A DNA stretch of 64,000 bases from the NCBI GenBank assembly GCA_017941085.1, contig JAGAXF010000020.1, forward strand, positions 36,386 to 100,385, given 5' to 3'. Within the stretch, counting starts at the first letter, position 1, and every line of letters begins with the position of its first letter. This document shows, piece by piece, positions 54,055 to 58,027 of the stretch. Position numbers and translations under genes: made by a program. The notes under the pieces were generated by a model, which was not told the origin of the DNA, did not search any database, and was given only the letters and a program-made list of their open reading frames with translations. Source of the stretch: Bacillota bacterium (GTDB lineage: Bacteria; Bacillota; Clostridia; Peptostreptococcales; Anaerovoracaceae).

Positions 54055-54447
54055 TTATTTGCGCTTGCACTCCTTTGGTGTTACGCAGGTTCCCGTGGCT
54101 CTGGCCACTACTACAGGCTCTTCCAGGAAGTCTGCTGCAGAAGCGCTGATGTCAGGCCTTGTGGCAATAACCTTGCGAGCTTCAAAGGACATCTTTCTGG
54201 ATGTATTACCGATGGTTGTTATTTCTCCATATGCTTCGATATAATCTCCTGCATATACCGGTGCCAGGAATTCGATGTTATCGTAGGCGCAGAAAAGACC
54301 TTCGTCTCCGTCGCATTTAATTAAAAGCTCTGTGGCAACATCTCCAAAGAGATGAACCATATGTGCTCCGTCTACCAAATTACCGCCGTAGTGAGCATCC
54401 TTTGCTGACATTCTAAGTCTTAATGTTGATGTGATTTTGTCGCTCAT
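54055..54447 (-). CDS. kal: 3-aminobutyryl-CoA ammonia lyase (lysine fermentation, hotdog fold)
   Basis: [46 protein letters not shown] matches known Kal proteins; kam context. Confidence 0.92.
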
Positions 54448-54489: not shown

Positions 54490-54518
54490 ATTGTAGCACA
54501 GCTTAACAGATATTTGAA
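54490..54518 (-). promoter_or_regulatory. Putative sigmaA promoter of kal
   Basis: On the minus strand: TTCAAA-N17-TACAAT with extended TGn. Confidence 0.6.
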
Positions 54519-54564
54519 AGTTGCAAAAGCACATATTTTAATGTATTATTTCAACAAATAATCC

Positions 54565-54612
54565 TGAACCGATTTCTGTTCAAATATAAATACGTGAACC
54601 AATTACAATTCG
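54565..54612. promoter_or_regulatory. Paired putative operator boxes (TGAACC-N6-GGTTCA type) between kal and the regulator
   Basis: TGAACC-GATTTC-TGTTCA (54565-54582) and TGAACC-AATTAC-AATTCG (54595-54612). Confidence 0.65.
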
Positions 54613-54636
54613 ACTACAAATCCTAAGGAGACTCCC

Positions 54637-56703
54637 ATGAAAATTCCTCCCACCATGATAGAAAGAGTGCTGGAACCCAAGCATGTACTACCTACCTCCG
54701 CCTGGAAACTAGATAACAGCAGATACCTTTTTCCCGGTGAAATGCGCATCGATGTAAAGCGCATACATATTGAAGGAACCAGCTTTAAGGAAATTTGCCT
54801 GGAGGGTGGCGAAAACGATCAGAAGATAAAGCAGAAGATCATGGATATCGTCATTAGAAGAGGCAAGCTCCATAATCCTGTAACAGATACGGGAGGTCTT
54901 CTCTTTGGTGTAATTTCTGAAATAGACAAAAAGTATCCCAATACCAAGAATTTTAAAGTGGGGGACGAGGTAATATGCAACGCCTCCCTGGCTTCTGTGC
55001 CTTTAAGCATTGACGATATAACCTCTATAGATCGCGCCTATGGACAGATATCTGTAGATGGATATGCCATTATTTCCCCGGAAATGCCGGTGCTTAAAAA
55101 GCCTAAGGATCTTCCTTTGAAACTGTTAATGTATACCCTGGATGAATCGGGAACCCTTTATAGAATCAGCACAACTGCAGTAGGTAAGAAAAGATTTCTG
55201 GTGGTAGGAAACAACCTGCTGTCCAATTTGCTCTTTGGTGTAGCTATAAGAAAGGTGGCCAGAAATGATGCAGAGGTGGTTTGCCTTTTGGACAGAAATA
55301 CCACGGCGGTCTTAAAGGGAGAAAGCATCGATCGTCTTACCAAAAAAATATTTACAGAGGTTCACTATGTGGATATTCTAAGGCCCCTGGAAACCTTGGA
55401 AACAATAAAGGATGGAGGGCTTTTTGATCTCTCTGTTAACTGCGTGGATATTACAGGGGCTGAAACCATAAATATTCTGGCAACAAAGAGCGGCGGTACC
55501 GTGGTATTTGCCAATCTTATAAACAACTACAATATTGCTCTCTATATTACAGAGGCCATTTCAAGACAGCTGGATATTAGATGTGCCGATGGTTATTTGG
55601 AGGCCTACGATGCCTTCGATTTTGAAATCGTAAGAGAAATGCTTCCCTATATAGAAGGGGCGGAGGAAACCGTTACACCCATGGGAGGAGATCCCGTTCA
55701 TCCCATCAGCAAAAAGAGTCAGATGATGAAAACTGCCGGTGCCAGGTTAAGTCTTATGGGTGATTTCATTTATGACAGCACCGCCATGCAAATGGTGATG
55801 GATGAAATTCTTACAGTATCCAAATACGATTGCAATGTTTTAATTACGGGAGAAAGCGGCACAGGAAAAGAAAAAATCGCCAGTATTATTTGCAAGAACA
55901 GCGACAGAAAACTGCAACCATACATAAAGGTAAATTGTGGATCCATTGCTCCAGAACTCTTTGAAAGTAAGCTCTTTGGCAAAGAAGGAGGAAGACGTGT
56001 TCCCAATGAAAAGGGATTCCTGGAACAAGCGGAAAACGGTACTGTATTCTTGGATGACATTGGAGAGATGCCGCCGGAAATGCAGATAAAGCTTCTCAGG
56101 GCAATTCAGGACGGGGAATACTTTAGACAGAATGGAGCCACGGCGGTAAAAATGAATGTAAGACTGATTTCCGCCAGTAGAAAGGATTTGGAAGAATTAA
56201 TAGATAAGGATACATTTAGAAGGGATCTTTACTATCAATTGAATGTGGTAAGAATTAGAGTTCCTGCCCTTAGAGAAAGGACCGCCGATATACCCGGACT
56301 GGTAGATCATTTCCTTGAGGAATATGGAAAGAAATTCGGAATTAAGAGAACCATCAGTGAAGACGCCGTTGATTATCTATGTCAATCCGACTGGCCCGGT
56401 AATGTAAGAGAGCTGGAAAATGTGGTTCAGCGTATTATGATAGGGGCCACCAGCGAACAAATAAGCCTAATCGATGTAATGAAGGAAATGCATAGTGATG
56501 TCTTTGATGTAAGCATAGCGGGAATGTCTGAAGAGCTGGATGAAAATATTGAAGAAGTAAATATGGAAACCATGGTGGAGAATTTTGAGAAAAACATCAT
56601 TAGACATGCTTTGGAAAAATACGGTTCCACCAGAAAGGCGGCCAAGGCCATAGGAGTAAGCCAGACTCAGCTGGTAAGAAAGAAAAATAAATACGGCCTT
56701 TGA
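54637..56703 (+). CDS. Transcriptional regulator: Kdd-like (pseudo)enzyme domain + degenerate NtrC-type AAA+ domain + TyrR/Fis-like HTH
   Basis: Residues 1 to about 340 align by eye with Kdd. GESGTGKE Walker A, VNCGSI, FLDDIGE and WPGNVRELEN are present. HTH STRKAAKAIGVSQTQLVRK. No GAFTGA. Confidence 0.88.
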   Translation: MKIPPTMIERVLEPKHVLPTSAWKLDNSRYLFPGEMRIDVKRIHIEGTSFKEICLEGGENDQKIKQKIMDIVIRRGKLHNPVTDTGGLLFGVISEIDKKYPNTKNFKVGDEVICNASLASVPLSIDDITSIDRAYGQISVDGYAIISPEMPVLKKPKDLPLKLLMYTLDESGTLYRISTTAVGKKRFLVVGNNLLSNLLFGVAIRKVARNDAEVVCLLDRNTTAVLKGESIDRLTKKIFTEVHYVDILRPLETLETIKDGGLFDLSVNCVDITGAETINILATKSGGTVVFANLINNYNIALYITEAISRQLDIRCADGYLEAYDAFDFEIVREMLPYIEGAEETVTPMGGDPVHPISKKSQMMKTAGARLSLMGDFIYDSTAMQMVMDEILTVSKYDCNVLITGESGTGKEKIASIICKNSDRKLQPYIKVNCGSIAPELFESKLFGKEGGRRVPNEKGFLEQAENGTVFLDDIGEMPPEMQIKLLRAIQDGEYFRQNGATAVKMNVRLISASRKDLEELIDKDTFRRDLYYQLNVVRIRVPALRERTADIPGLVDHFLEEYGKKFGIKRTISEDAVDYLCQSDWPGNVRELENVVQRIMIGATSEQISLIDVMKEMHSDVFDVSIAGMSEELDENIEEVNMETMVENFEKNIIRHALEKYGSTRKAAKAIGVSQTQLVRKKNKYGL

Positions 56704-56755
56704 TAATAGTTTTAAATAGTTTTCCCGGACAGCTAAAAGTCAGCAAAATAATAGT

Positions 56756-56805
56756 TGAACCAATAATGGTTCAACTATTTTTGTATGTGAACCAAATTTA
56801 GCTCA
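56756..56805. promoter_or_regulatory. Paired putative operator boxes upstream of kdd
   Basis: Perfect TGAACC-AATAAT-GGTTCA (56756-56773) and TGAACC-AAATTT-AGCTCA (56788-56805). Confidence 0.7.
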
Positions 56806-56850
56806 CTATAAATTTTTGGCAAAAATTAGCCATTTTCTAAAGCTTTGCCA

Positions 56851-56879
56851 TAGACTAGATTTTTCCCTCATTCTATAAT
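56851..56879 (+). promoter_or_regulatory. Putative sigmaA promoter of the kdd-kam operon
   Basis: TAGACT-N17-TATAAT. Confidence 0.65.
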
Positions 56880-56962: not shown

Positions 56963-58027
56963 ATGAAAAAGGGAGGAAATCCTTACGGAACACACAGAGT
57001 TATTTCACCAAAGGGTGTACTGCCACAGCCGGCAGACGTTATCGATAACGATATGGAAATCTATGATAACGAGATTAAGATTGATGTTAAAACCCTTAAC
57101 ATTGACTCCGCATCATTTACATCCATAGTAGATCACGCCTGTGGCAAGAAGCCTACCGATGATCTTAGCGATGCAGACATTCAGTCCATCAAAGATACTA
57201 TGATGGGCATCGTAGAAAAGGCCGGTAAGCATAAGAATCCTTGGACAGGATCCGGCGGCATGCTTATTGGAACAGTGGAGGAAATCGGACCTGAGTGGAG
57301 GGGTGACCTTAAGGTAGGCGACAAGATTGCAACTTTGGTATCCCTTTCTTTGACACCCCTTGTAATAGATGAGATTTTGGAAATGAGACCTGCCATCGAC
57401 CAGGTTGATATTAAGGGACATGCAATTCTTTTCCAGAGCGGTATCTATGCAAAGCTTCCTGATGATATGCCTGAAGGACTTGCTCTCTCCGCATTGGACG
57501 TTGCAGGTGCACCGGCCCAGGCAGCAAAGCTGGTTCAACCGGGAATGAAGGTTATGGTTATCGGTGGTGGCGGCAAGTCCGGACTTCTTTGCCTCTATGA
57601 AGCAAAGAAGAGAGCTGGTGTTACAGGTCAGGTAATCTGCGCTGCCGGTTCCCAGAAGTCTGAAGACAGAGCAAGAAATCTTAATCTGGCTGATGATTAC
57701 TTCCATCACGATGCCACAGATGCTGTGGGTATGTATGAAAAGGTTATGGAACTTACCAATGGTGAGCTTTGTGACCTGGTAATTAACTGCGTAAATATCG
57801 AGAATACAGAAATGGCTTCCATTCTCTGCACAAAGGATGGAGGAAGAGTATACTTCTTCTCCATGGCTACCAGCTTCACAAAGGCTGCTCTTGGTGCTGA
57901 AGGTGTTGGCAAGGACGTAGAGATGATCGTAGGTAACGGCTATACAAAGGGTCATGCTGAAATTACACTTCAGGTTCTTAGAGAGCATGAAGGCATCAAG
58001 AAGCTCTTTGAAGAAATGTATGCATAG
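56963..58027 (+). CDS. kdd: L-erythro-3,5-diaminohexanoate dehydrogenase
   Basis: YGTHRVISPKGVLPQ, GKHKNPWTGSGGML, ALDVAGAPAQ, IGGGGKSG and VYFFSMATSFTKAALGAEG motifs. Confidence 0.93.
   Translation: MKKGGNPYGTHRVISPKGVLPQPADVIDNDMEIYDNEIKIDVKTLNIDSASFTSIVDHACGKKPTDDLSDADIQSIKDTMMGIVEKAGKHKNPWTGSGGMLIGTVEEIGPEWRGDLKVGDKIATLVSLSLTPLVIDEILEMRPAIDQVDIKGHAILFQSGIYAKLPDDMPEGLALSALDVAGAPAQAAKLVQPGMKVMVIGGGGKSGLLCLYEAKKRAGVTGQVICAAGSQKSEDRARNLNLADDYFHHDATDAVGMYEKVMELTNGELCDLVINCVNIENTEMASILCTKDGGRVYFFSMATSFTKAALGAEGVGKDVEMIVGNGYTKGHAEITLQVLREHEGIKKLFEEMYA

Follow-up and report, generated by a model that had tools for sequence, protein, structure and literature searches.

We describe four 18-bp palindromic boxes that surround the gene of a 688-residue regulator (54637–56703, plus strand) in a genome of the family Anaerovoracaceae. 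We propose that the boxes are bound by this regulator, which would have switched from sigma-54 to a TyrR/PhhR-like stimulation of sigma-A promoters and would repress its own gene; this explanation as a whole is given a probability of roughly 0.65. The DNA analyzed, referred to as the window, is a stretch of 64,000 nucleotides (GenBank assembly GCA_017941085.1, contig JAGAXF010000020.1, positions 36,386 to 100,385 of the forward strand). Within it, the regulator gene is located between kal and the kdd-kamABCDE operon, both belonging to the fermentation of lysine to butyrate, a pathway for which, to our knowledge, no regulator is known. A literature search returned no description of a Kdd-domain regulator, of a lysine-fermentation operator, or of the motif reported here. 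The regulator consists of a pseudo-enzyme N-domain similar to Kdd, an AAA+ domain of the sigma-54 type that has degenerated, and a helix-turn-helix of the TyrR type.

All four boxes of the preliminary description were read back from the sequence at the positions it had given; no strand is assigned to any of them. On the kal side, Box A (TGAACCGATTTCTGTTCA, 54565–54582) has one mismatch, and Box B (TGAACCAATTACAATTCG, 54595–54612) has a perfect left half and three mismatches in the right half. On the kdd side, the distal Box 1 (TGAACCAATAATGGTTCA, 56756–56773) is perfect, and the proximal Box 2 (TGAACCAAATTTAGCTCA, 56788–56805) has two mismatches. The distance is 30 bp from Box A to Box B and 32 bp from Box 1 to Box 2. 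Eight matches with at most two mismatches occur in the window versus 2.09 expected, a number attained in none of 100 shuffles, and the complete 1.66-Mb genome holding the window (G000) has one perfect site and seven sites with one mismatch. The consecutive 30-bp units 54565–54594 and 54595–54624 are identical at 21 of 30 positions, which is matched by 6 of 10,000 shuffles. Box B thus probably originated from a 30-bp tandem duplication that made the regulator leader 30 nucleotides longer. A YGAACM half-site is found at +28 to +33, the region of Box B, in 17 of 45 loci, and the second kal-side box is specific to the lineage of the window.

The preliminary description had assigned the boxes to the adjacent regulator and had proposed a genome-wide motif scan and phylogenetic footprinting. 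For the latter, a genome search across the Anaerovoracaceae yielded 49 regulator loci, including that of the window, and a weight matrix was built from 54 distinct boxes in the orthologous loci, none of them from the window (consensus YGAACCGAWWTCGGTTCR). When the genome was scanned with this matrix, Box A (25.1 bits), Box 1 (21.8 bits), Box B (15.6 bits), and Box 2 (13.0 bits) ranked 1, 2, 7, and 11, respectively, among all positions, Box A being the strongest site. The motif was found in the orthologous loci, with its layout kept: most of the 49 loci have a single box approximately 40 bp ahead of the regulator ATG, of which Box A is the orthologue, and relatives have paired boxes 3' of the regulator stop codon, with a box-to-box distance of 31 bp in 17 pairs and 32 bp in 13 (30 of 33 pairs). 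The boxes also accompany the regulator gene in a clade where its neighbors are not kal and kdd (loci L031 and L033–35). Hence, among the 48 other loci, the boxes are conserved in sequence and position and move with the regulator gene. The helix-turn-helix of the regulator (GSTRKAAKAIGISQTQLVRKK.KY) is near-invariant across all 49 proteins. Because of this footprint, the matrix ranks, the movement of the boxes with the gene, and the near-invariant helix-turn-helix, we regard it as very likely that the adjacent regulator binds the four boxes.

The AAA+ domain of the regulator is recognized as a sigma-54 interaction domain (PF00158, Sigma54_activat; E = 3.9e-51; residues 378–540), with several of its functional motifs lost. 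GAFTGA is deleted, FGKEGG----RRVPNEKGF standing in place of FGYEKGAFTGA....KKGY, Walker B reads DD, the sensor-I Asn is replaced by Arg, and the Arg finger is replaced by Gln, with Walker A (GESGTGKE) intact. From these changes, the protein is predicted to be unable to contact sigma-54. Judged by its sequence, it lacks the defining features of a functional sigma-54 activator, namely GAFTGA, the catalytic ATPase residues, and a -24/-12 promoter to act on. The C-terminal domain matches Pfam HTH_50 (E = 5.3e-14; HTH_8 only 2.3e-5), and its closest relative of solved structure is 1G2H, the DNA-binding domain of a TyrR homologue (best PDB match, E = 2.8e-4), in line with the analogy to TyrR drawn in the preliminary description. 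The N-domain scores 132.8 bits against the Kdd equivalog NF052381, which is under the cut-off, and shares 29% identity with the neighboring true Kdd in a full-length alignment. The glycine-rich loop of Kdd, GGGGKSG, has become GNNLLSN, a decayed nucleotide-binding loop.

The orthologues indicate what preceded this state. G[AS]FTGA is kept in 36 of the 49 proteins, and 31 of these 36 have TGGCAC-N5-TTGC promoters beside the boxes (at kal and/or kdd), on both sides in 23 loci. A sigma-54 promoter was found in none of the 13 GAFTGA-less loci, including that of the window, where neither side of the regulator has a -24/-12 promoter. At kal, the distance from the start of the box to the sigma-54 16-mer is 43–45 bp in 23 loci; in the window, 44 bp lead to a decayed relic of this promoter (54521–54536, minus strand; ATATGTGCTTTTGCAA versus TGGCACGCCTTTTGCA in relatives), which no longer has the -24 GG but retains the -12 TTGCA. 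Walker B, the sensor-I Asn, and the Arg finger are each retained in 35–36 of the 36 GAFTGA-containing orthologues, and substitutions of Walker B (to DD or NE), sensor I, and the Arg finger, present in GAFTGA-less proteins, essentially never occur among these 36. On the maximum-likelihood tree, GAFTGA was lost about five times, and at least two losses are forced by well-supported branches. Loss of rpoN as the cause was ruled out: the gene is present in the genome of the window (PF04552, 211.9 bits, C1:1138–1614) and in 20 of 20 relatives tested, which cover 12 of the 13 GAFTGA-loss genomes. It follows that the change is confined to this regulator. We read the regulator family as ancestrally a sigma-54 enhancer-binding protein and the boxes as its inherited enhancer (upstream activating) sites.

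An apparent intermediate is found in a congener, G279 (locus L016), whose regulator has intact GAFTGA and ATPase motifs. In this genome, kal has a sigma-54 promoter, but kdd has a sigma-70 promoter at 79 bp. Loci L010, L018, L024, and L037 have a TTTACA-16/17-TATAAT-like sigma-70 promoter immediately downstream of the kal sigma-54 promoter; loci L019, L020, and L022 have the same sigma-70 promoter, and the sigma-54 element was not detected there. Such tandem kal promoters may have eased a later switch from sigma-54 to sigma-70.

In the window, the kdd-kamABCDE operon has a predicted sigma-70 promoter at 56851–56879 (plus strand), consisting of TAGACT (56851–56856), a 17-bp spacer, and TATAAT (56874–56879); it matches at 10 of 12 positions and is the best in the region. 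The predicted sigma-70 promoter of kal (54490–54518, minus strand) consists of TTCAAA (54518–54513), a 17-bp spacer, and a -10 element with TG extension, TGcTACAAT (hexamer 54495–54490). From the box centers to the start of the -10 element, the distances are 77.5 and 109.5 bp at kdd and 78.5 and 108.5 bp at kal; both the promoter-like sites and these distances agree with the preliminary description. Among the GAFTGA-less lineages that have kdd as a neighbor, every one has the start of the kdd -10 element 77–79 bp from the center of Box 2. Their promoters have a T[AGT]GAC[AT]-like -35 element with TATAAT, TAAAAT, or TAGAAT, and the DNA between Box 2 and the promoter is mostly unalignable, with 10–21 identities in 45 positions between lineages. 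In GAFTGA-containing loci, the sigma-54 promoter is located anywhere from 49.5 to 202.5 bp from Box 2. The claim that the boxes stand far upstream of predicted sigma-A promoters is thus strengthened by the missing GAFTGA, key ATPase residues, and -24/-12 promoters and by the preserved 77-bp spacing.

Between Box 2 and the -35 element, there is a palindrome/A-tract, TGGCAAAAATTAGCCA (56817–56832, no strand assigned), and other lineages without GAFTGA (L021 and L025–27) have a sequence resembling GCAAAAATT at the same offset. This element could be a bend or a site for another factor. At the same position, TGGCAAAAATTAGCC (at 56817) was considered as a hidden sigma-54 promoter and rejected, the GG-N9-GC spacing being one base short and the element only about 20 bp from Box 2. 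An Rfam scan of both intergenic regions and the kdd leader gave nothing credible, all matches being far under the gathering scores.

The regulator gene has a predicted sigma-70 promoter of its own at 54521–54549 (plus strand; TTGCAA-17-TATTAT), whose -35 element corresponds, on the opposite strand, to what was once the -12 element of the sigma-54 promoter of kal. TTGCAA-17-TATYAT is conserved in GAFTGA-containing and GAFTGA-less loci alike, and in most of the loci scored, the box center lies 29.5–31.5 bp past the start of the -10 element (approximately +18). In the window, Box A covers about +9 to +26 of this promoter and lies at about -90 of the kal promoter. Autoregulation, already suggested in the preliminary description, is thereby supported; since Box A is just downstream of the regulator's own predicted start, the regulator probably represses its own gene, and the arrangement suggests negative autoregulation via Box A. 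In locus L033 (genome G294), tgtgccattgccttttgattaa is present as four copies in tandem ahead of the regulator promoter.

Box 1 is also part of another structure. A hairpin resembling an intrinsic terminator of the regulator gene (56750–56784, plus strand) has a 13-bp stem (AATAGTTGAACCA/TGGTTCAACTATT), a 4-nucleotide loop, and a trailing TTTTTG. The hairpin itself (56750–56779) begins 47 bp past the regulator stop codon, has a folding free energy of -19.4 kcal/mol (z = -6.4) with a T-run behind it, and contains Box 1 as its inner stem. In 14 of 33 loci, the stem at Box 1 is lengthened by mutually complementary flanks that vary in sequence between genomes and run into T-tracts; such flanks were seen at Box 2 in 1 of 33 loci and at the upstream box in 0 of 46. 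Because the inner stem is conserved in sequence and the outer stem in pairing only, both functions are supported, and Box 1 appears to serve as an operator as well as a terminator stem.

Beyond the lysine locus, the best matrix sites point to two transporter genes. Among the 11 best sites in the genome, four have a sigma-70-like promoter at 76.5–78.5 bp, compared with 0.62% of random positions. For the two such cases among the seven sites outside the lysine locus, we calculated from this rate a chance probability of approximately 8e-4. The third-best box of the genome (CGAACCATATCTGGTTCA, 17.9 bits; site C28:903 within C28:883–1060) is upstream of an NhaC-family transporter gene, with a weaker box 20 bp further upstream and a TTGACG-17-TAAAAT promoter whose -10 element starts 76.5 bp from the box center. 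G279 has an equivalent NhaC arrangement with a sigma-70 promoter at 77.5 bp. Another box (TGAACCAGAATTGGGTCA, 13.7 bits; site C32:47583 within C32:47583–47720), with a TATAAT promoter at 76.5 bp, precedes the gene of a YfcC-family putative basic-amino-acid antiporter. The NhaC-family and YfcC-family transporters are candidate lysine carriers.

Taken together, these observations could be explained as follows. The ancestral regulator would have been a sigma-54 enhancer-binding protein that controlled kal and the kdd-kam operon of lysine fermentation through the boxes, its upstream activating sites. In the lineage of the window, the GAFTGA loop and the catalytic ATPase residues would have been lost, and both sigma-54 promoters would have been replaced by sigma-70 ones. 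The TyrR-type helix-turn-helix would read the 18-bp palindrome, and regulator dimers would sit on a single face of the DNA at paired boxes, which are spaced by about three helical turns. A pathway metabolite would be sensed through the Kdd-derived pseudo-enzyme N-domain, and the degenerate AAA+ domain would serve for assembly only, possibly in an ATP-bound state. From about -90/-120, the complex on the paired boxes would then make a position-dependent contact that stimulates sigma-A RNA polymerase, with a spacing of 76.5–78.5 bp from the proximal box center to the -10 start common to kdd, kal, and the two transporter genes. In addition, the regulator would repress its own promoter from +18, and Box 1 would double as its terminator stem. 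What the sequence comparison establishes in this scheme is the identity, conservation, and geometry of the sites and the loss of the sigma-54 apparatus; that the protein binds the boxes, where transcription starts, which ligand acts, and whether regulation is positive or negative are inferred. We infer activation rather than repression because of the fixed spacing at four promoters, the absence of boxes over the core promoters, and the activator ancestry.

Several observations weigh against stimulation from the paired boxes. The preliminary description had stressed that kal and kdd share the same spacing. The kdd part of this claim is reinforced by the 77-bp spacing in all GAFTGA-less lineages with kdd, but at kal, a universal 78.5-bp spacing was rejected, because the value of 78.5 bp in the window becomes 77.5–87.5 bp in the other loss lineages. 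Moreover, TTTACA-17-TATAAT is already present beside the kal sigma-54 promoter in GAFTGA-containing relatives, so the kal promoter may not depend on the regulator. Given the variable kal spacing and the older kal sigma-70 promoter, the match between kal and kdd in the window is lineage-specific. For a contact with sigma-70 RNA polymerase, boxes at about -90 are a long way upstream. Activator-dependent promoters are usually not near consensus, whereas the predicted sigma-70 promoters are (TATAAT, with 4–5 of 6 matches in the -35 element), so a negative or modulating role is possible. Finally, neither transporter site is conserved outside the genus: the NhaC site was found solely in G000, G279, and, there with a sigma-54 promoter, G125, and no box was found upstream of YfcC homologues in relatives. 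These sites are thus lineage-specific at best.

One idea that follows from such strong promoters is that the degenerate protein, acting through the same sites, is a repressor or anti-inducer relieved by its ligand, with oligomers spanning the paired boxes or, as could be envisaged, with a DNA loop that joins the kal-side pair to the kdd-side pair over a distance of 2.2 kb. Near-consensus promoters should fire without help, Box A certainly has the location of a repressing site relative to the promoter of the regulator itself, and NtrX, an atypical enhancer-binding protein, has been reported to act as a repressor (PMC6158489). We nevertheless consider this reading unlikely, if still a real prospect, as the core promoters of kdd, kal, and the transporters are free of overlapping boxes, the ancestors were activators, and a position that stays 77 bp upstream at four promoters and across several lineages is what contact activation typically shows. 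With all requirements for sigma-54 activation gone from the protein and Box 1 forming part of a terminator, one could also regard the kdd-side and kal-side boxes as leftover enhancers, such that only autoregulation through Box A and termination through Box 1 still matter. This seems improbable to us, since near-consensus boxes persist in all GAFTGA-less lineages, even at the hairpin-free Box 2, since the spacing to the new promoters is fixed, and since new sites of the same geometry (Box B and those at the NhaC and YfcC promoters) arose in the lineage of the window.

The two remaining alternatives concern the identity of the sites. The preliminary description had allowed that the palindrome at 56750–56779 might be a terminator only, with the motif absent from orthologous loci, and the 13-bp stem with its T-run and z score of -6.4 indeed fits a terminator. 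However, that the likeness of the four boxes is a coincidence is hardly credible. Across genomes, the sequence of the inner 18 bp is conserved, and just the flanks vary, yet stay complementary; the hairpin-free Box 2 and Box A carry the same motif; all four boxes are within the genome-wide top 11; and the motif is present in the orthologous loci. Box 1 being both operator and terminator stem, the reservation in the preliminary description does not apply. Binding of the boxes by a different, unlinked transcription factor is very improbable, given that in most of the 49 loci they stand on either side of the regulator gene, accompany it into other neighborhoods, and have a 6-N6-6 format that fits its TyrR-type helix-turn-helix. 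Position-dependent stimulation by the adjacent regulator thus remains our preferred explanation. A more far-reaching joint claim is that one orthologous group switched from sigma-54 to sigma-70 several times with the same boxes, that an intact protein of the G279 type drives both polymerase forms (G279 has sigma-70 promoters at the 77–79-bp position at kdd and the NhaC transporter gene), and that the 77-bp rule is an undescribed long-range, position-dependent activation of sigma-70 promoters by a catalytically dead AAA+ protein. We advance this claim tentatively and think it somewhat more likely to fail in one of its parts than to hold throughout.

Of the known systems, TyrR of Escherichia coli and PhhR of Pseudomonas putida are the closest in design. 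They too have an AAA+ "sigma-54 interaction" domain without GAFTGA and a TyrR-type helix-turn-helix, 18-bp palindromic boxes of 6-N6-6 format arranged as a strong and a weak site ahead of sigma-70 promoters (predicted ones in the present case), and a regulon of amino-acid pathway genes that includes transporters, as predicted here. The TyrR box, TGTAAA-N6-TTTACA, is likewise a 6-6-6 palindrome. The box of the present regulator is YGAACC-N6-GGTTCR instead, and its sensor is a full-length Kdd copy with a decayed nucleotide-binding loop, not an ACT and a PAS domain. Unlike TyrR and PhhR, it comes from a Firmicute, it is under the TyrR cut-off (243.8 bits against NCBIfam NF008085, cut-off 576), and its close orthologues are still canonical sigma-54 activators. 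By its score, its different sensor, and its different box sequence, we conclude that it is not a TyrR orthologue. For PhhR, according to a title cited in PMC6158489, two upstream sites are bound and sigma-70 transcription is stimulated.

The absence of GAFTGA at sigma-70 promoters, here predicted ones, is shared with atypical enhancer-binding proteins such as NtrC and HupR of Rhodobacter capsulatus, VpsR, and NtrX. In R. capsulatus, NtrC works from sites in tandem that lie over 100 bp upstream. In R. capsulatus NtrC/HupR, Caulobacter NtrC, Vibrio cholerae VpsR, and Brucella NtrX, GAFTGA has been lost, often with changes in Walker B, and action is with sigma-70 (PMC6158489; bioRxiv 10.1101/2023.06.06.543975). 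These are response regulators of Proteobacteria with receiver domains, whereas the present regulator has an enzyme-derived sensor, its catalytic ATPase residues are also gone, and the change from sigma-54 to sigma-70 is visible inside a single orthologous group. PrdR-type sigma-54 regulators of amino-acid fermentation in clostridia resemble the GAFTGA-containing orthologues, which have upstream boxes and TGGCAC-N5-TTGC at catabolic operons. PrdR is the top NCBIfam match for the AAA+ plus helix-turn-helix part of the regulator, but the score is 271.5 bits versus a cut-off of 795, and the protein of the window has no sigma-54 contact. Nie et al. 2019 (PMC6615313), who surveyed the sigma-54 regulons of clostridia, list no kam, kdd, or lysine genes and no kam/kdd group. 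The comparison supports the view that the regulator is a sigma-54-independent enhancer-binding protein with TyrR-like boxes, the new elements being a naturally replicated transition from sigma-54 to sigma-70, an apparent intermediate, and the 77-bp rule.

With these data, lysine-to-butyrate fermentation gains a predicted regulator, a motif, and a small regulon comprising kal, the kdd-kam operon, and two candidate lysine transporters. The data also bear on the origin of sigma-54-independent enhancer-binding proteins (TyrR, PhhR, VpsR, R. capsulatus NtrC): closely related genomes that share one operator contain canonical, intermediate, and fully switched forms of a regulator. The steps of the switch (promoter swap, GAFTGA loss, ATPase decay) and the 77-bp rule are therefore directly testable by swaps of proteins and promoters. 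If the reading of G279 is true, an intact protein can drive both polymerase forms.

The two neighboring target genes were identified by their NCBIfam scores. The kal gene (54055–54447, minus strand) encodes 3-aminobutyryl-CoA ammonia-lyase (NF052388, 193 bits versus a cut-off of 160), and kdd (56963–58027, plus strand), the first gene of its operon, encodes L-erythro-3,5-diaminohexanoate dehydrogenase (NF052381, 243.7 bits versus a cut-off of 200). Downstream of kdd are kamA, kamB, kamC, and kamD, each above its own NCBIfam cut-off. The closest named relative of this genome is [Eubacterium] infirmum, of the family Anaerovoracaceae. A second enhancer-binding-protein gene, encoding 454 residues, was found approximately 7 kb past the end of the window (G000, C13:107360–109945). 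Its AAA+/helix-turn-helix part is 33% identical to that of the regulator, and it is followed by a Kdd paralogue of 348 residues, with which it may form a regulator-enzyme pair. Many Anaerovoracaceae genomes contain two to four paralogues of approximately 700 residues with a Kdd-like N-domain and an AAA+ domain (30–45% identity), which suggests that enhancer-binding proteins with sensors derived from enzymes form an expanded family.

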